Shown here: piece by piece, positions 2,879 to 57,544 of the stretch | Numbering within the stretch: the stretch's first letter is position 1 | Layout of the letters: each line of letters starts with the position of its first letter | From: a virus | Taxonomy: Duplodnaviria; Caudoviricetes | Length of the DNA stretch: 64,000 bases | IMG/VR virus record: IMGVR_UViG_3300022555_000004 | Direction: 5' to 3' (one strand) | The notes under the pieces: model-generated | What the model was told of the DNA's origin: nothing | The model's input: the letters and a program-made list of their open reading frames with translations, nothing else | The model's database searches: none | Program-made: the position numbers and the translations under genes

Positions 2879-4195
2879 TTATTTCTTTTTACTTACAGGA
2901 AGCGTTTTAATTTTAGACCAATCCCATACTATATCCGTTTCTTTTACATCTAACATGGCACACATTCGTAAAAATCCTTTTCGACCATGTTCTGTATCTA
3001 TGTCAGCATCAACTGCCTCTTTGTATATTTTTAGAGCATTCCATGATGACCATAGAGCTTTCCATTCTTTTTGTATATCATCATAACCCCATACATCATG
3101 ATCCCACATTTTCTCTGTCCATATTTCTGTCATACGGACAACAACTGTGAATAATTCGATTTTATTCATCAATCTGGCCATTTTATGTTCATATTCTTTT
3201 TTCTTATATGTCGGATCACATGCTAGTGATAAGTCGAATACATAGTGTGCCATAATGGATTTGATACGATCCCATTTTCTATGATAATTTTCAGCACCTA
3301 TATACCTAAACTCAATATATTCATTGGCAGAATTTAGGTGTTCTATGTTGATCGCCATATAGTGGTCAGCGGGATATTCTTTTTTCAATCCGGTCACATC
3401 AATCAATTTTGTGGCTAATTTTGGGGCATTTAATCTTATCAAGGAACGATTAACTGTATCATGTGCTGACCTAGCATATGTATTAAATTCTCTTGCTGCA
3501 AAAAAATTATAGATATACCCTTCATCCATGAATAGAGATAACTTAGTAATATCAATTGCTTCACCGAGATTAGGAACATTTTTCAATGACATACTGATAT
3601 GGAAGCCACATGCATCGTCTATCTCGGCAGCAGGGCCCATGTTGTTTATATACTCAAACACTTTTGGGCAAATTTCCAAAAATTCTTTTAGGGGCAGGAT
3701 AGGTGACACAATTTCCAGACCGTGCAATCCTAGTGACCCATCGGGTTTGATGACCCATTTTTTAGCCGACTTAACATTATGGTCATGTGTAATAATCATG
3801 TTTTTGAACGGTAGTGTTTCTAAGTTCAAAAAGTCTTTTATCAATTTTCTGAATAGTTGATCCTTGTCTATTTTGAGATTAGGATATACTTCATCAGGTG
3901 GTGGTATTTCATCACCTATTTCATATCCTGCTTCAACTGCCCATTCAGGTAAATTTGGTAAAGGTTCTGTATTATTATCTATTGATGTCCATGCTTCTAG
4001 TTTATCATCATATTCTTCTTGTTCGATTGCCATGTCCTGCATTTTATCAAACATATCAACTTGCTTTTCATACTTGTCTATGAACGGCGGCACTTTAAAT
4101 TCAAATTCAGCACCGACATATACGTTTGGATTAGTCAGGGCTTGACTTATATCTTGCTTAGATACTTTTTCTAATAGAAGTTCTCTTAATGTCAT
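2879..4195 (-). CDS. Putative amidoligase (COOH-NH2 ligase type 2 family)
   Basis: VGAEFEF, IKPDGSL, GLEIVSP, CGFHIS, HYMAIN and IEFR motifs. Confidence 0.8.
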   Translation of the reverse strand: MTLRELLLEKVSKQDISQALTNPNVYVGAEFEFKVPPFIDKYEKQVDMFDKMQDMAIEQEEYDDKLEAWTSIDNNTEPLPNLPEWAVEAGYEIGDEIPPPDEVYPNLKIDKDQLFRKLIKDFLNLETLPFKNMIITHDHNVKSAKKWVIKPDGSLGLHGLEIVSPILPLKEFLEICPKVFEYINNMGPAAEIDDACGFHISMSLKNVPNLGEAIDITKLSLFMDEGYIYNFFAAREFNTYARSAHDTVNRSLIRLNAPKLATKLIDVTGLKKEYPADHYMAINIEHLNSANEYIEFRYIGAENYHRKWDRIKSIMAHYVFDLSLACDPTYKKKEYEHKMARLMNKIELFTVVVRMTEIWTEKMWDHDVWGYDDIQKEWKALWSSWNALKIYKEAVDADIDTEHGRKGFLRMCAMLDVKETDIVWDWSKIKTLPVSKKK

Positions 4196-4265
4196 TTGTT
4201 ATACCTCTTGTTATTTTAATATTCTTATTTATGTCTTTACAATAGCTTTATGTTTTTCTAAATAA

Positions 4266-4342
4266 TAGAAGGTAATCCAGATGTGTGGACATACTGGAAA
4301 CAGCGGAGCGAACAGCTGCTGTCCCTTCTCATTCTATTTATA
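4266..4342 (-). ncRNA. Three-way-junction element A with TATAAATA late promoter (4335-4342), antisense to the adjacent GIY-YIG gene
   Basis: P1 AGAAGG/CCUUCU, P2 GACAGC/GCUGUU, P3 UCCAG/CUGGA; same fold as 9034-9113. Confidence 0.65.
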
Positions 4343-4356
4343 AGGAGCGACTGTCT

Positions 4357-5053
4357 ATGTCAAACAAAATTTTTGGTGTAATCTATAAAGCAACTAATCT
4401 TATTAATGGTAAATGTTATATTGGACAAACAATACGATTTAAAAAACGAAAATATGACCATATATTCTGGTCTATAAATGAACTAGATAATTTCTATTTT
4501 CATAATTCCATAAGAAAGCACGGCGTTGGTAATTTCAGTTGGGAAATTATTTATGAATGTGATGATAAATTGTTACTAAATGTAATGGAAACATTTAAAA
4601 TTATGACACATCATAGCCATGTTAGTGAAGGCAAAGGATATAATCTAACTTGGGGCGGTGATGTTATATATGGCAGACCTTGTTCAGAAGAAACTAAGGA
4701 AAAAATAAGGCAAACACAATTAGGTAAACATATTACTGATGAAACACGAATAAAAAATGTGTATTGCTCAACAAAACAGGCCCACAATATCAGAAGAAAC
4801 AAGAATAAAGAAGAAAACGTTTCGTCATTCAATTGACACTAAAACAAAAATGCGTGAAAATACAATAGGTTCTCTTAATGGGTTTTATGGTAAAAAACAC
4901 ACAGATGAAACTAAAGCAAAATGGAAAAATAGACCTGTTTGGAATAAGGGCATACCAAGATCAGAAGAAACAAAACAAAAAATACGTGAAACTAAGTTAC
5001 GAAACAAACGTTTTAACCTTCAATGTACTCTGGATGAACAAGTTGTTTTATAA
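4357..5053 (+). mobile_element. GIY-YIG homing endonuclease with NUMOD3 repeats, frameshifted at A6 run 4752-4757
   Basis: GVIY...CYIGQT, GYNLTWGGD, SEETK..I repeats; ORFs 4285-4836 and 4757-5053 join with one A removed; opposite strand to flanking genes. Confidence 0.85.
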
Positions 5054-5534
5054 TAGTATTGCAAAACAGATCCCATTCCGGTAATTTATGTCCAAGTCTT
5101 TGTTTGTATATGTTACGCAATGTCTTATAACTATAACAACAAATTCGTGTTTGTATAAAACTACTAGGCAACAATCTTCGTAGACCTATAAAATCTTTAC
5201 TTAATCTACATTTTTCCAGTTCATCTAATATAATATTAGGGATAGGAACTTCAAACATATCTTGTGATATTTGTTTTTTCATTAGAGTATGCATTGTTGA
5301 TGTTGATTGTTTAGTACCTATTCGATATGTATCTAATTGATTATACCAATATAGAGGCGCATCAATTTTTAACCATACCATTATGCTCTCCAAGAATTTA
5401 TTATGTCCACCATCTTTATTGTATAATGTTTGTGATACTTTTTGTAATTGGTCTTTATCGGTTATATTATAGGATAGGCCAAGACCTAATAGAGCTTCAT
5501 TATAACCAGATTCGTTTAAAATTGAAATTTTCAT
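5013..5534 (-). CDS. thyX: ThyX-like flavin-dependent thymidylate synthase (divergent)
   Basis: GHNKFLESI, PLYWYNQLDTYR..QSTSTMH, SYKTLRNIYKQR.GHKLPEW pattern; canonical RHR motif altered. Confidence 0.65.
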   Translation of the reverse strand: MKISILNESGYNEALLGLGLSYNITDKDQLQKVSQTLYNKDGGHNKFLESIMVWLKIDAPLYWYNQLDTYRIGTKQSTSTMHTLMKKQISQDMFEVPIPNIILDELEKCRLSKDFIGLRRLLPSSFIQTRICCYSYKTLRNIYKQRLGHKLPEWDLFCNTIIKQLVHPEYIEG

Positions 5535-7767: not shown

Positions 7768-8060
7768 AATTCAAACAATTCATCGTCTAATGTAATTTCA
7801 TATTCGTTGTATGGCATAACATGTGCTTTGCTTATGGCATATGTTGATAATCCTCTTGGTTCTACAATTCTATAACTTGACTCTGAACTAAATCCGGTTA
7901 CTATAAAAAATGGAACATCAAATCTATGGTCATATGATTGATATCCATACGATATGTTTGAATCTTTTATCCTAACAAACGACCCACTTTTAAAGTCTGG
8001 ATTGCTTCTAAGTTGTTTCAATACTTCTGGTTTAAATTTTACTTTTAACGTCATACACAT
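7764..8060 (-). CDS. LDDELFEL-tag family protein, subtype A
   Basis: Ends EITLDDELFEL*. Confidence 0.8.
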   Translation of the reverse strand: MCMTLKVKFKPEVLKQLRSNPDFKSGSFVRIKDSNISYGYQSYDHRFDVPFFIVTGFSSESSYRIVEPRGLSTYAISKAHVMPYNEYEITLDDELFEL

Positions 8061-8063
8061 TCC

Positions 8064-8303
8064 TTATAATTCAAACAATTTATCATCTAATGATATCACA
8101 AAAGGAAAAACCTCTACGAATGGATTGTCATCTGGCTTATATGTTACCATACTTAGACGGCCTTTTGTGTCACTTATTTTTACCTGACCATAGCCAAATT
8201 TATCATCTTTTATTATTATAAAATATGTCAATGATTTGAAATATTGACACTCTGGACAATTACAATCCATACAATCTTCTTTAAATTTATAATATCGTTC
8301 CAT
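8064..8303 (-). CDS. LDDELFEL-tag family protein, subtype B (CxCPxC)
   Basis: Ends ISLDDKLFEL*. Confidence 0.8.
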   Translation of the reverse strand: MERYYKFKEDCMDCNCPECQYFKSLTYFIIIKDDKFGYGQVKISDTKGRLSMVTYKPDDNPFVEVFPFVISLDDKLFEL

Positions 8304-9019
8304 TATTTTATCATTTCCATCAATGTATCAAAGTCAATAATGGTTACGCGCGACCTTTTCATTGATTCACTTATTTTTCTTTTATGTTCATCTGACATAG
8401 GGCCTCTTTTCATTCCTGTTCTACTTTTACTCATTTTTTCCTTTGTTTCTTTGGTCATTGGATGTTTATTTTTTGCTGATATTGACATTTTTTCTCTGGT
8501 TGTCAACGAAAATGTTTTATTGATAGCCGATTTACTCATTTTCTTTTTTGTTTCATCTGATTTTTTTCTGCCTAAAAGTGATATACTTATTTTTTTTCTT
8601 ACGTCCGATGGTATAGTTTTTCCAAACATGTAACTCAATTCACCAGTATATTTTCCTATCATTGATAATGACCGTTTTTCAATAATTTCTTTTGAAAATT
8701 TATATCCTTTAGGTATGCCATCTCCACCCCATGTAAGATTATACCCACCTTCTGTCCAATGAGAATGGTTTACAATAATTTTCATGGTTTCCATGACACC
8801 TAAAACTAAGGCATCATCACATTCATATAATATTTCCCATTTGAAATTACCAAGACCATACTTTTTAATAGCACGATGAAAATATGTATTGCTTTTACTT
8901 TCAACACTATCTTTATGCCCTTGTCTTCTTTTATGTAATGATTGTGTTGTTTTGCCAACATAACATTTACCGTTGATTAAATTTGTTGATTTATAAATAA
9001 TACACAATTGTTCTGACAT
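8303..9019 (-). mobile_element. GIY-YIG homing endonuclease with NUMOD3 repeats
   Basis: CIIY...CYVGKT, GYNLTWGGDG, SDETKKKMS repeats; start MSEQL with RBS. Confidence 0.9.
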
Positions 9020-9033
9020 AAGATATACCTCAC

Positions 9034-9113
9034 TATAAATAAGATGTGGAAGGGACAGCAGCAAACCTCACGCTGTTTTCGGTGTGTTGACGCACCCGAA
9101 TTACCTTCTACAT
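9034..9113 (+). ncRNA. Three-way-junction element B with TATAAATA late promoter (9034-9041), antisense to the adjacent GIY-YIG gene
   Basis: P1 AUGUGGAAGG/CCUUCUACAU, P2 GACAGC/GCUGUU, P3 UUCGG/CCGAA; covaries with element A. Confidence 0.65.
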
Positions 9114-9124
9114 GTATTTAGAGA

Positions 9125-10900
9125 TTACCTCAACATTTCTATAAGATCTTGAAAACTTATTATAGTAATATTCATGGTTTGCGCCTTTTTGTTTTTGATA
9201 CTGCCGCTATCGGAATCATCCGTCACCAAATAATCGGTGGATTTAGAAATACCTTTTACATATCCACCCTTGCTTGTTATCAATTGTGTAACTGCATCAC
9301 GTTTCATGGGCATTTTGCCAGTCAATGTGAATGTCAGTCCACTTATACTCGTTTTCTCTTTCATAATAAATTTCAATCCTTTCTCTTTCATAAAATTGTA
9401 AAGTTCGGCAAACTTATTTATATTTTCTACAAGGTTGTTAGAAAGAATATCTCCAACACCTTCTATACCATAGATGCCGTCTACGTTGAATAAATCATCA
9501 AAATTATATTTTTCTAAAATTGGTGTCGCCAATGTTTTACCAATACCACTTATACCAAAGGCTGCCAATAACTTATCAGGTGTAACCGATAGTGTTTTCT
9601 GGATTTCATAATAGACCTGTTCGGCCTTTTTGATACCAAATCCCCCAAGGGCAGACATTTCCAATTCATCCAATTCATACATTTCTTCAATAGAATTGAC
9701 ACCAAGATTTCTGACCGTTGTTTCGGTAATGTATTCAGACCCTAATGTTTTGAAAAAATGGGCAATCTGTCTTACCTTAGAATCATAACAATCCTCATTT
9801 TTACATACAAGGTCAACACCGATATGTTGTACACTACCACCACATGAAGGACAAACCTCCGGTGCGAAAATATCGAGAACTCGCTCGAAGACCTCTGTGA
9901 TGTAGGGTATCACACCACCACTACGGACAATACCAATTACGGCGCCCGTTCCAATTCCATTATCAAAAATGAAATCATAATTAAATCCGGTTGCTTTAGA
10001 GATTGTAACACCATCTAATTCAATCGGTTCAATATAAACCAAAGGTGTAATTTTGCCTGTACGTCCCAAATTCCATTCGACCTTATCAACAACTACTTTG
10101 ACTGCTTCTGTATTAACCTTGTATGCCACCTTATTTTCCGGTAACATAACATCTTCCCGTTCAGAATCATTATTCGTTAGAACAAGGCCATCAACATCAT
10201 AAGGCATGTATTTTGCGTTCATCAAAATCGTATTTAAGGTATCCACAATATCACTATCTTTTGAGTATTTTAATGTAGTGAACGGCGGAACTTGAAGACC
10301 AAGATTGACCATTGTGGACAATCGACTAATTTCGGTTGTAGGGATGCCCGTTTCACATTCCAATATTTCATAAAACATTGGATGTAACATTTCAACATGA
10401 TGAGCAAGTGCACCATTGACGCCGTTTCTACGATTTTTATAACCTAATTTGATATGGTCATCATTAAACAATAACAATTCACCCCTCAAAGAGATTCGAC
10501 TATCAATAACAAATTTGGGCATAATCTTTTTGATTTTATCCGTAATGTCCTGCCCTTCTTGACCATCGCCCCTTGTGGACGCAAATACAACTTCACCATT
10601 TTCAACAGTAACCATGAAGGATACACCATCAAGTTTATGGCTGACAACGATTTCCTTACCTTTTACAAACTTTTCAACTGTATCGGATTTTACCTTATCT
10701 AAGGAACCCAACACAAAGGGTAATTTGACCTTTTCGCCATCAACACTGGCACCGACTGTTTTGAAATATTGGTCATTAGGAAATTCGGACTTGGCCTGTT
10801 CCTTCAATAAATCATATTCAGTGTCAGTCAATGTCGTGACATCTTCATTGTAATATTCCTTATCATATTGTTTTAATTGTTCTAATATATTTTTTGTCAT
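9125..10900 (-). CDS. ligA: NAD-dependent DNA ligase
   Basis: KLDG motif I, TRGDG, Cys-containing Zn-finger region, HhH repeats, C-terminal BRCT. Confidence 0.96.
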   Translation of the reverse strand: MTKNILEQLKQYDKEYYNEDVTTLTDTEYDLLKEQAKSEFPNDQYFKTVGASVDGEKVKLPFVLGSLDKVKSDTVEKFVKGKEIVVSHKLDGVSFMVTVENGEVVFASTRGDGQEGQDITDKIKKIMPKFVIDSRISLRGELLLFNDDHIKLGYKNRRNGVNGALAHHVEMLHPMFYEILECETGIPTTEISRLSTMVNLGLQVPPFTTLKYSKDSDIVDTLNTILMNAKYMPYDVDGLVLTNNDSEREDVMLPENKVAYKVNTEAVKVVVDKVEWNLGRTGKITPLVYIEPIELDGVTISKATGFNYDFIFDNGIGTGAVIGIVRSGGVIPYITEVFERVLDIFAPEVCPSCGGSVQHIGVDLVCKNEDCYDSKVRQIAHFFKTLGSEYITETTVRNLGVNSIEEMYELDELEMSALGGFGIKKAEQVYYEIQKTLSVTPDKLLAAFGISGIGKTLATPILEKYNFDDLFNVDGIYGIEGVGDILSNNLVENINKFAELYNFMKEKGLKFIMKEKTSISGLTFTLTGKMPMKRDAVTQLITSKGGYVKGISKSTDYLVTDDSDSGSIKNKKAQTMNITIISFQDLIEMLR

Positions 10901-10999
10901 CTTTATATATCCTTAGTTTTTTCTCTTATTATAACACAAAAAGGGAATAATGTCAACCATTATTCCCTTTTGTAAGTATTGTAAATAGATAGCTTTTTT

Positions 11000-11207
11000 T
11001 AGGTTGCCGCCCGTCATAATACGGATGCGCTGGCACTATCTTCTGATTCCTGCTCGATATTTACAATTTTATTTATTTTTCTGATAGGATTCCCCACCCT
11101 ATTCCATATTCCCACATTTGGTTACTACAAGGTTCAACTGTCAGGCAGCCTTTTCATGCCATATGCTTTGGAATATTTTATCACTACGACAACCTAGTGC
11201 TGACACA
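11000..11207 (-). ncRNA. Candidate ~200-nt structured RNA
   Basis: 5' UAGGUUGUCG pairs with 3' CGGCAACCUA (G-U favours minus strand); also GUGUCAG/CUGACA, GCACUA/UAGUGC, UAUUCCA/UGGAAUA. Confidence 0.5.
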
Positions 11208-17994: not shown

Positions 17995-18046
17995 AATTTT
18001 TATCTCCTATATCTATTTATATAAAATTAAAAATTTGTAAATGAAA

Positions 18047-44795: not shown

Positions 44796-45695
44796 ATGAT
44801 AAATGATAAACAGGCAATTTGGGTGTTCAAACATGAACCTACTGAATTTGAAGATATGGTTCTCAATGAGGATGTTCGTGGTAAATTAGGAAAGGCATTA
44901 GTTGAAATTCCAAATCTAATGTTAGTTGGCCCTGCTGGTGTTGGTAAAGGAACCTTTACACATATATTTTTGAAAAAAACAGGTCTTGATAGTCTTTGGG
45001 TAAATTGTTCTGATGAAACATCTATTGATAATATCAGAACAAAAGTGAAATCGTTCGCAACATCTTTGGGTATTACACCTTTGAAGGTTGTTGTATTGAA
45101 CGAATGTGATTTTCTATCGGTGCCCGGCCAAGCCATGCTTAGAGATTTGATTGAACAAGTCCAAAAAATTACACGGTTTATTATCATGTGTAATTATGGT
45201 CATAAGATAATTCCCGAATTACAATCTCGATGTCAGATTGTTGAATTAGGCAACCCACCTTTGAAGGATGTTGCTAAATTTGTTATGGGAATACTCAAAA
45301 AAGAAAAAGTGGTCATTGATAAAATAGAAACAGTGGTTGATACAGTAAAAAAATTATATCCAGATATTAGGTCAACCATCAATACACTACAATTGAATAC
45401 AGTCAATGGCTGTATTACAAATGTCAAACTGGAAAATACAACTGGCGTTTATGATAAAATATTGAACCTAGCAATGTCTTCTGACTTAGACGGTATAAGG
45501 AAAGCATTGAGGTCGAATACAATAAATTATACCGATTTATATCAATACTTTTTTGATAATGTCGGTGGGTTTAAGTCGCCGGGGGATGCCATCATTGAAA
45601 TCGCCGAAGCAATGTATCGTGATAGTATTATCGCAATCAAAGAAATCAATTTCATTTCATGTGTTTTGAAATTGATTAAAAAGGGTTGTATATGA
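44796..45695 (+). CDS. gp44: Clamp loader small subunit (T4 gp44/RFC-like AAA+)
   Basis: KHEP.EFED, GPAGVGKGT, INCSDE, LNECD, ELQSRC. Confidence 0.92.
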   Translation: MINDKQAIWVFKHEPTEFEDMVLNEDVRGKLGKALVEIPNLMLVGPAGVGKGTFTHIFLKKTGLDSLWVNCSDETSIDNIRTKVKSFATSLGITPLKVVVLNECDFLSVPGQAMLRDLIEQVQKITRFIIMCNYGHKIIPELQSRCQIVELGNPPLKDVAKFVMGILKKEKVVIDKIETVVDTVKKLYPDIRSTINTLQLNTVNGCITNVKLENTTGVYDKILNLAMSSDLDGIRKALRSNTINYTDLYQYFFDNVGGFKSPGDAIIEIAEAMYRDSIIAIKEINFISCVLKLIKKGCI

Positions 45696-52425: not shown

Positions 52426-53295
52426 ATGACAACCAGCCTGATAGACCTTAACAACCTCGCCGTTAGACATTATTGCTCAAAAGAAGTGGGTTATGATACA
52501 GATGAACCCAACATATCATTATGGAAACATAATGTAATTGACTCAATATATCAATCGTTATATAAAGAACCGTCCCTAAATGAGATTGTTCTTGCTGTTG
52601 ATGATAGGAAATCATGGCGAAAATTATATTGGGCTAGATACAAAGAATCACGAAAAGGAAAACGAGATAAATCCAAAATTAACTGGAATATTTTTCATAC
52701 AGAATATAGAAAATTTTGTGATGAAATTCAAGACAACCTACCATTCAAAGTATTACTTGTTGAAAATGCCGAAGCTGATGATATCATTGGCGTTCTTGCT
52801 TTAAAAGATAATAGGGAATATATTGTTATTTCTAATGATGAAGATTATTTACAATTAGTGTCAGATAGGGTAAAATTGTATAATCCTCAAAAAATGATGT
52901 TTATGGATTGTCCTGATACAGAGAAATTTATCGTAATGAAATGTCTTACTGGGCAAGCAAAGGATGATATATTCAATATTAAAACACCGTTAGATTGGCC
53001 GGCAGGCAAAAGAAAGCCGGGTTTTGGTGAAGTTTCGGCAAACGCTGTTCTTAGTTCTGGATACAAGGACTGGCTTATTAAAAATAACTTAGAAAAACGA
53101 TTTGATGTAAATCGTATTTTGATTGATTTTCATAGAATACCAACTACGATAAAGTCAAGAATAATAAATGCTTACAAGAATTATATATTAGCTCCACCAG
53201 ATAGAATGTATGGATTTTTTGCTGGAAATAAGTTTGGCGGTTTTATTGAAGATTTCAGTAGGGTTGAGAGCAAACTTTTACAATTATACAATTAA
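52426..53295 (+). CDS. rnh: T4-type RNase H / 5'-3' exonuclease
   Basis: LIDLNN, WRK.YW..YK.SRK, EADDIIG, ISNDED..QL, GQAKDDI.NI. Confidence 0.9.
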   Translation: MTTSLIDLNNLAVRHYCSKEVGYDTDEPNISLWKHNVIDSIYQSLYKEPSLNEIVLAVDDRKSWRKLYWARYKESRKGKRDKSKINWNIFHTEYRKFCDEIQDNLPFKVLLVENAEADDIIGVLALKDNREYIVISNDEDYLQLVSDRVKLYNPQKMMFMDCPDTEKFIVMKCLTGQAKDDIFNIKTPLDWPAGKRKPGFGEVSANAVLSSGYKDWLIKNNLEKRFDVNRILIDFHRIPTTIKSRIINAYKNYILAPPDRMYGFFAGNKFGGFIEDFSRVESKLLQLYN

Positions 53296-57258: not shown

Positions 57259-57277
57259 ATTAAGTGAGGTATTTGAT

Positions 57278-57544
57278 ATGTTTGATGATATTTTAGATGA
57301 TAAAAAAGATGATAAAAAGATGTGGGTTTTTTATGTTAAGAGTGTAAGTAAGGACAGTAATGGCATGCCACTTGTCAATATTAGCATTGACTCTGTAAGT
57401 TCAAAACTTGATAACGGATATGTATTAGAAGATGGTAGATTTATCAACAAAGAACAAGTGATAAATGAAATAACACCAACAAATAAAGAAAGTATAAATG
57501 ATGTAAACAATGCTGCAATATTTGTTGAGAATTTAAAAACTTGA
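57278..57544 (+). CDS. Hypothetical protein
   Basis: GAGG RBS before MFDDIL. Confidence 0.65.
   Translation: MFDDILDDKKDDKKMWVFYVKSVSKDSNGMPLVNISIDSVSSKLDNGYVLEDGRFINKEQVINEITPTNKESINDVNNAAIFVENLKT

Follow-up and report, generated by a model that had tools for sequence, protein, structure and literature searches.

Organization of the locus

At the locus analyzed here, a gene for a free-standing homing endonuclease, HEG-B, lies downstream of ligA and on the same strand, and the short interval between the two genes is occupied by an RNA element, copy B, with an octamer of the T4 late-promoter type on either side (Table 1). Positions are those of the window, by which we mean the whole 64,000-nt stretch of phage DNA that was analyzed. 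The HEG-B product matches Pfam NUMOD3 (5.3e-11) and the homing endonucleases of PHROG 314 (6.5e-30), its GIY-YIG/SegE matches being weak, and the ligA stop codon lies 2 nt beyond the far octamer of copy B. A first-pass annotation of this DNA had placed the element upstream of the GIY-YIG gene, on the opposite strand from a paralogue (copy A), with a late promoter that points at the 3' end of ligA and hence drives no protein gene. The sequence agrees with this layout, and no open reading frame lies ahead of the near octamer of copy B. A second perfect TATAAATA is found at 8992-8999 (+), 42 nt upstream of the copy B near octamer, where the opposite strand encodes I-I-Y-K of HEG-B; were this octamer active, its transcript would cover the HEG-B start codon and Shine-Dalgarno (SD) sequence in full antisense and would include the whole fold.

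Table 1. Features of the copy B locus and of its paralogue in the window.
Feature	Position	Strand	Remarks
HEG-B, free-standing GIY-YIG + NUMOD3 homing endonuclease gene, 238 aa	8303..9019	-	Start codon 9017-9019
HEG-B Shine-Dalgarno region, GUGAGGU, 7 nt before AUG	9027..9033	-	Read from the sequence
Near octamer TATAAATA, T4-type late promoter motif	9034..9041	+	Points into the element, away from HEG-B
Three-way-junction RNA core, copy B	9044..9113	+	Fold, covariance model, covariation
Copy B P1	9044-9053/9104-9113	+	10 bp including one G.U
Copy B J1/2, GAC	9054-9056	+	Unpaired at the junction
Copy B P2	9057-9062/9072-9077	+	AGCAGC/GCUGUU
Copy B P2 loop, 9 nt	9063-9071	+	
Anti-Shine-Dalgarno heptamer ACCUCAC in P2 loop	9065..9071	+	Complementary to the HEG-B ribosome site
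Copy B P3, outer stem	9078-9082/9096-9100	+	UUCGG/CCGAA
Copy B P3, inner part	9084-9087/9092-9095	+	Preceded by bulged U9083; P3 loop 9088-9091
Copy B J3/1, UUA	9101-9103	+	Joins P3 to P1
Far octamer TCTAAATA, degenerate	9115..9122	-	Outer cassette edge
ligA, NAD-dependent DNA ligase	9125..10900	-	Pfam ligase adenylation, OB, HhH and BRCT domains
Copy A fold	4262..4333	-	The one paralogue in the window; covariance model 72.4 bits
Copy A near octamer TATAAATA	4335-4342	-	Element with octamer, 4262..4342
HEG-A, GIY-YIG + NUMOD3 gene in two frames	4357..5053	+	Frames 4357-4836 and 4757-5053

Copy A stands head-to-head with HEG-A and also adjoins the start of an amidoligase gene. HEG-A itself is apparently frameshifted: the switch of frame falls within 4740-4840, at or near the A-run ATAAAAAATG, with the NUMOD3 repeats in the 4757-5053 frame, and it could represent a frameshift mutation, an assembly error or slippage. 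Two further GIY-YIG genes, at 18021 and 32638 (-), lie in a tRNA-rich region (their products begin MNYIVYEVRNK... and MYYTIYEVRNK...) and have the plain order TATAAATA-SD-ATG without a three-way junction, so that two styles of endonuclease control occur in this genome. The window holds 20 tRNA genes at the Rfam gathering score, all on the - strand and all within 16850-39696; these are the 20 matches to the tRNA model, which has none at 9034-9113.

Fold, covariation and strand

For the + strand of copy B, the fold has an energy of -31.6 kcal/mol (z = -4.95), which none of 200 shuffles matches, and the fold of the - strand is weaker (z = -2.17). P1 runs to 10 bp, as had been proposed, with one G.U among them, and only seven of these pairs would lie inside an RNA that starts near 9047. 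When 15 members of the family described below are aligned, 93.6% of the cells are paired and 11 pairs have changed on both sides, a level of pairing that none of 500 shuffles equals and that compares with 38-51% in slid controls. P3 covaries strongly, with changes on both sides in eight pairs; its outer stem is seen as UCCAG, UUCGG, UCAGG, GAUUG, UCUGG, UCCGG and GCUUG, each with its complement, and the difference earlier remarked upon between copy B (UUCGG..CCGAA) and copy A (UCCAG..CUGGA) is borne out. No change is seen in the P1 core, in P2 or at the junction among the 13 close members, and the invariant GAAGG..ACAGC..GCUGUU..UUACCUUC, along with a bulged U in P3, is present in its entirety in copy B (9044-9113). 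The diverged members L250b and L259b have compensatory changes at two pairs of P2 (A-U to G-C or G.U, and C-G to U-A), and because these fit the register AGCAGC/GCUGUU alone, we take it as the register of P2; RNAalifold also favors it, and the alternative register breaks in the diverged members. With P2 in this register, GAC is unpaired at the junction and the P2 loop of copy B has 9 nt.

We favor the TATAAATA strand, that is, the strand read from the near octamer, as the functional one, although we do not regard the matter as settled. Conserved G.U pairs are found on this strand in P2 (15/15 members) and in P1 (9/15), and P3 is often closed by a U.G; on the opposite strand all of these would turn into A.C mismatches, and the support that they lend is modest. 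Minimum free energy favors the TATAAATA strand by about 1.5 kcal/mol on average, not in every member, and folding energy makes no decisive choice between the element strand and its mirror. The earlier proposal of a free small RNA hence holds up in part: the near TATAAATA faces no protein gene and the G.U pairs are on its strand, but the energies of the two strands barely differ.

An RNA family in uncultured T4-like phages

Copy B is a confirmed member of an undescribed family of three-armed RNAs that stand beside selfish nuclease genes in uncultured T4-like phages. A covariance model of the family, R1, was built from 13 members. On the 64-kb window it returns copy B at 86.7 bits (E = 3e-22) and copy A at 72.4 bits (E = 4e-18) and nothing beyond these two, the next best score being 13 bits; the other members score 53-86 bits, and chance pattern matches reach 21 bits at most. 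Exact-pattern scans, together with R1, which added three more diverged members (53-60 bits) among the contigs from those scans, yielded 16 distinct members, all of them on uncultured phage contigs from IMG/VR and JGI/ENA metagenomes, some labelled activated sludge. One IMG/VR contig, a 66.7-kb fragment (G001; L002), has three copies of the module, at 3573-3647, 45568-45637 and 53080-53154, which fall into two loop classes; their nuclease neighbors are genes of the zinc-finger type and truncated GIY-YIG genes.

Loose pattern scans of IMG/VR gave only chance matches among those listed, and two relaxed patterns gave zero extra family members. A pattern scan of prokaryote genomes returned four MAG contigs, none of which is a true member: with R1 scores of 18 bits or less, these are chance matches. 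In 50,697 GenBank phage records, neither positions 8000-11000 of the window (megablast) nor three module classes (blastn) found a family match, and the search produced one chance AT-rich match, in a microvirus. The element is unmatched in Rfam 15 at gathering scores over the whole window, and at E <= 10 copies A and B and eight homologous loci gave only sub-threshold chance matches, the best of which score at most 18.5 bits against cut-offs of 47-114. At these ten loci, int-alpA (RF02996) was unmatched at E <= 10 with permissive filters, and C4 antisense RNA (RF01695) was likewise unmatched at E <= 10. A hammerhead or other ribozyme, or a tRNA-like identity, was also considered and rejected, the core motifs being absent and Rfam giving no match. 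In the literature, no description of an RNA of the copy B type was found.

A module shared by unrelated nucleases

In all 16 members, an endonuclease gene on the opposite strand has its start codon 12-32 nt away from the fold, which extends to the family the linkage to homing endonuclease genes that the first-pass annotation had seen in the window. The module of about 105 nt, from far octamer to start codon, is far better conserved than the genes behind it. The modules of L008 and L254 are 95% identical, and their ORFs, an HNH and a GIY-YIG nuclease, are 21% identical in amino acids; the corresponding values are 87% and 22% for L252 and L261, and 95% and 52% for L007 and L255, and L250b and L281 share a module class and encode different nuclease types. 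The nuclease partners comprise two GIY-YIG subfamilies, an HNH/EndoVII-like type and the zinc-finger endonuclease of PHROG 559. Copy B and its nearest relative, L243, are similar right up to the far octamer and no further, and we hence take this octamer to be the edge of the cassette. L007 has two different GIY-YIG genes in tandem at 3813-5519 (-), with a module only at the 4932-5519 gene.

Alleles that have lost most of the endonuclease gene do keep the element intact. In four independent metagenome contigs (L003, L247, L257 and L259), a GIY-YIG gene that is intact in L255 alone has undergone a clean deletion of 425 bp (junction L003 3452/3453 against L255 1249-1673), and these alleles retain the RNA module, the ribosome site and 38 codons. 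They represent decay after insertion, not an empty site, and since the deletions are internal and spare the ribosome site and 38 codons, the link between element and endonuclease gene is not refuted by them. At ligA itself, relatives identified by the ligA protein are only 26-46% identical and offer no comparable site for an empty-site test.

The P2 loop and the ribosome site of the endonuclease

Every member has in its P2 loop a second copy, read on the same DNA strand, of the bases that border the near octamer on its outer side. These bases are the antisense of the SD region of the adjoining endonuclease gene, so that an element-strand RNA is complementary to the mRNA of that gene at its ribosome site. 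This match goes beyond the first-pass annotation and gives the RNA a concrete target. The ACCTCAC of copy B at 9065-9071 is identical to 9027-9033 (+), and this longest common string of 7 nt has P ~0.005 against random windows; in copy A, the loop UCGCUCC matches the SD of HEG-A through the common 7-mer TCGCTCC. Across the members, the loop-SD complementarity extends over 5-8 contiguous nt, a short match, and every SD complement has a CCUC/CUCC core. Loop and SD region co-vary across seven sequence classes, namely ACCTCAC (copy B and L243), TCGCTCC (copy A), (A)CCTCTC, T(T)CACCTC, TTAGCTCC, TTTGCTCC and GTTCTCCT, and this co-variation reaches past the SD core expected of any 16S-complementary site. 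The longest string common to loop and flank averages 7.2 nt when both are of one member and is 3-5 nt when the flank is from another class, and the own-flank match has P values of 0.001-0.02 against random windows of the same locus in 14 of 15 members; that of the 16th member is equally good. Five of the 16 members retain the match beside broken endonuclease genes.

Predicted duplexes between loop and initiation region average -12.6 kcal/mol for cognate and -7.0 kcal/mol for non-cognate pairs. Copies A and B are predicted not to cross-react, with cross-duplexes of -4.1/-5.6 kcal/mol against cognate ones of -10.9/-12.8 kcal/mol (copy B, -10.9). The anti-SD bases are predicted to be 50-98% unpaired (0.98 in copy B). 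Loop and SD strings are copies on one DNA strand, and pairing between them therefore requires two transcripts, one from each strand; these identical same-strand copies, combined with co-variation beyond the SD core, are the main argument for pairing in trans. Two other accounts of the repeated string were rejected: a leader ORF behind the SD copy, as no member has a start codon after it, and a target-site duplication giving rise to the 7-9-nt copies, as the segment between them is only half of the fold. Elsewhere in the window, a GTGAGGT in SD position occurs only at 57264-57283 (+), before a small ORF (ATG 57281) directly after a ribonucleotide-reductase-like gene; to judge from its sequence, the copy B loop could pair there as well.

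Octamers and transcription

Two inward-facing late-promoter octamers flank the element in every member, 6-9 nt from the base of P1. The near octamer, on the element strand, is TATAAATA in ten of the 16 members, CATAAATA in four and TCTAAATA in two; the far octamer, in the sense of the endonuclease gene, is a perfect TATAAATA in 14 members and TCTAAATA only in copies A and B. Both octamers are perfect in 8/16 members, and one of them is degenerate in the window copies and in the L003 group. The T4-type late octamer spans -13 to -6 (PMC1524935), and a copy B transcript would on that basis be expected to start at about 9047.

Position -13 is loose in T4-like phages, and Aeh1 uses CTAAATA (PMC1524935). 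In the window, TATAAATA is enriched (25 sites against 14 expected) whereas CTAAATA is depleted (7 sites against 17.4 +/- 4.3 expected), and of these seven sites, copies A and B account for two with their far octamers. With TCTAAATA as the far octamer, the late promoter in endonuclease sense thus looks disabled in the window phage. Neither strand of 9020-9125 contains a terminator-like site (hairpin plus U-tract) or a sigma-70-like site, and no terminator or defined 3' end follows P1 of copy B. Given a degenerate far octamer and no terminator between the genes, HEG-B is probably transcribed by read-through from ligA. For most relatives, the far octamer is the probable start of the endonuclease mRNA, whose leader would then be the fold in mirror image; the mirror-image RNA is probably also made, since a perfect far octamer (14/16) reads through the element into the endonuclease gene.

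Discussion

We suggest, and give the suggestion a probability of about one half, that copy B encodes a small RNA, transcribed late and divergently, which masks the ribosome site of its own endonuclease by pairing with it. Copy B would on this proposal belong, as one module, to a portable cassette that controls free-standing homing endonuclease genes. An RNA of about 65-70 nt would be driven from about 9047 by the near octamer (9034-9041) late in infection, and in it the P1 and P3 helices would hold the P2 hairpin in such a way as to expose its 9-nt loop. The loop sequence ACCUCAC would then pair in trans with GUGAGGU (9033-9027) on the HEG-B mRNA, and this pairing would hide the ribosome site, resulting in less, or differently timed, synthesis of the nuclease. 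As each cassette has a loop/ribosome-site pair of its own, control would be cognate. A complication is that the small RNA is complementary over its whole length to any endonuclease mRNA with a start at the far octamer or upstream of it; on such an mRNA, the mirror copy of the loop would vie with the true ribosome site for pairing.

It is tempting to take this proposal further, and to see in each cassette a private, orthogonal anti-ribosome-site RNA, an antitoxin-like immunity RNA with a loop/SD code of at least seven classes; we consider this extension unlikely. Were it true, the cassettes of one genome (A and B here, or the three of L002) or of co-infecting phages could be silenced independently of one another, and the unit of promoter, RNA and ribosome-binding site would amount to a plug-in controller that any nuclease ORF could acquire via recombination.

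Other interpretations place the function on the opposite strand or on both strands. The mirror strand could be the functional one, as the structured 5' leader of an endonuclease mRNA begun at the far octamer and exerting control in cis, with the invariant CCCUUCC (the 3' strand of P1) pairing either with GAAGG, the junction being closed, or with the SD, which would be masked; the P2-loop copy of the SD would serve as competitor or decoy. Such a leader would resemble the logic of late promoter and ribosome-binding-site (RBS) hairpin in I-TevI, segB and mobE (PMC2988022), and it accords with a far octamer that is perfect in 14/16 members and stands at the cassette edge, with two strands that fold about equally well and with the hairpins of the form UUCCUAU/AUAGGAG that appear in predicted leaders. 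The predicted SD is also often less accessible in these leaders than in the initiation region alone (0.07 against 0.71 in copy A, 0.13 against 0.68 in L008), but the predicted masking varies between members, and accessibility is lowered in only some of them. What an invariant CCCUUCC cannot explain is the joint change, in loop and ribosome site, of the bases that flank the SD core (TTAG, TTTG, TCG, GTTCT); moreover, the loop and SD copies are identical, not complementary, on the mirror strand, the conserved G.U pairs become A.C mismatches there, and the far octamer of the window copies is TCTAAATA, a motif depleted in the window. We hence think a functional mirror leader improbable, though it is the main rival. 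Masking of the I-TevI kind by sequence upstream of the far octamer was considered separately; it is seen in the copy B fold and absent in relatives, and it is rejected as a general mechanism because the similarity of the relatives ends at the far octamer. A different possibility is that both facing promoters fire, and that convergent transcription acts through polymerase collision or through RNase III cleavage of a sense/antisense duplex of about 70 bp, to which fold and loop match would be secondary. The inward octamers, set at a fixed and symmetric 6-9 nt from the base of P1 and both perfect in half of the members (8/16), would suit such an arrangement. A plain antisense duplex, however, needs no conserved fold, yet P3 is compensatory and P1, P2 and the junction are invariant; the second, non-overlapping complementarity to the SD would go unexplained, and one octamer is degenerate in the window copies and the L003 group. 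This makes convergent transcription quite unlikely as the main function.

The block of about 105 nt might instead act mainly at the DNA level, as a recombination and expression module for the swapping of ORFs, with an incidental fold. High module identity ahead of unrelated ORFs (L008/L254, L252/L261, and the differing types of L250b/L281) would be expected of such a module, and the PeSL cassettes are known to mediate modular shuffling (PMC2839356, PMC4122927). Recombination homology does not, however, call for compensatory changes in P3 and P2, for G.U pairs or for co-variation of loop and SD, and the early sigma-70-type promoter and terminator hairpin of PeSL are both absent here; we judge this reading very improbable. 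That the element serves as the ligA transcription terminator and nothing else is scarcely credible. It does begin 2 nt past the ligA stop codon, and stable hairpins form on the - strand too, but there is no hairpin-plus-U-tract on either strand of 9020-9125, the - strand fold is weak (z = -2.17), and the element recurs in contexts unrelated to ligA, at copy A (the amidoligase start) and in 14 further members. The lack of a terminator-like site and these unrelated contexts lead us to reject a terminator-only role, which the first-pass annotation had itself named as an alternative. Convergent transcription, a DNA-level module and a terminator all account for less of the evidence.

Among the selfish genes of large phages, homing endonucleases are the most common. 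The way in which a phage tolerates them is, to our knowledge, understood only from a handful of T-even cases, which all rely on cis hairpins. A conserved, portable RNA matched to the ribosome site of each nuclease would be a second solution, acting in trans, and would also be a rare case of a phage regulatory small RNA for which the sequence alone suffices to predict the target. For design purposes, it would offer a rigid three-way junction with a programmable loop of 7-9 nt and at least seven natural orthogonal pairs. The R1 model could in addition aid annotation, in that it flags free-standing endonuclease cassettes, decayed ones included, in metagenomic phage contigs.

In the divergent type I antitoxin systems, such as IstR-1/tisB, OhsC/shoB and Orz/Zor, the small RNA gene is a divergent, non-overlapping neighbor of the gene for a harmful protein and has short complementarity to the 5' region of its mRNA, by which translation is kept low. 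Copy B is likewise an adjacent, divergent and non-overlapping element that, on its sequence, is complementary to the initiation region of its target. It differs from these antitoxins in that the target is a 238-aa GIY-YIG nuclease and not a small membrane peptide, in that the complementarity comprises 5-8 contiguous nt, on the SD and in a hairpin loop, and in its phage late promoter. The c4 antisense RNA of P1 and P7 (RF01695) pairs through its loops with the ribosome-binding region of a neighboring gene, and its loop and target co-vary between related phages, giving specificity; it is processed from the target's own transcript, has two loops and controls an antirepressor operon. Copy B resembles c4 in setting the loop of a phage RNA against the ribosome site of a neighbor, without an Rfam match to RF01695.

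It is well established that T-even homing endonucleases are restrained translationally via their ribosome sites (PMC2988022). The RBS hairpins of I-TevI, I-TevII, I-TevIII, segB and Aeh1 mobE (PMC2988022) have the same target, the ribosome site of the endonuclease, and, as in the copy B family, they make use of late-promoter octamers and the control element moves with the endonuclease gene. In the T-even hairpins, the anti-SD is on the same RNA, and an internal late promoter relieves the masking (PMC2988022); in copy B, by contrast, the match is on the opposite strand and sits in a conserved three-way junction, which would make the pairing one in trans, and the octamer beside the SD points away from the gene. 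The endonuclease-sense octamer, for its part, lies upstream of the whole leader and not inside the hairpin as in the I-TevI type. The CfrI antisense RNA of the T4-like cyanophage S-PM2 is also tied to a free-standing homing endonuclease gene, but at about 225 nt it fully overlaps that gene and the 3' end of psbA, and neither a three-way junction nor a separate anti-SD loop has been reported for it (PMC2984593; PMC12197685). The PeSL cassettes of T4-type phages share with the copy B module that they are short, conserved and portable and that unrelated genes are exchanged at them, yet they consist of an early promoter and a terminator hairpin (PMC2839356, PMC4122927), whereas the copy B module has late octamers, a junction and a loop matched to the RBS. 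In architecture, copy B is closest to the divergent type I antitoxins and c4, and in setting to CfrI; it would work in a similar way but is a member of none of these groups.
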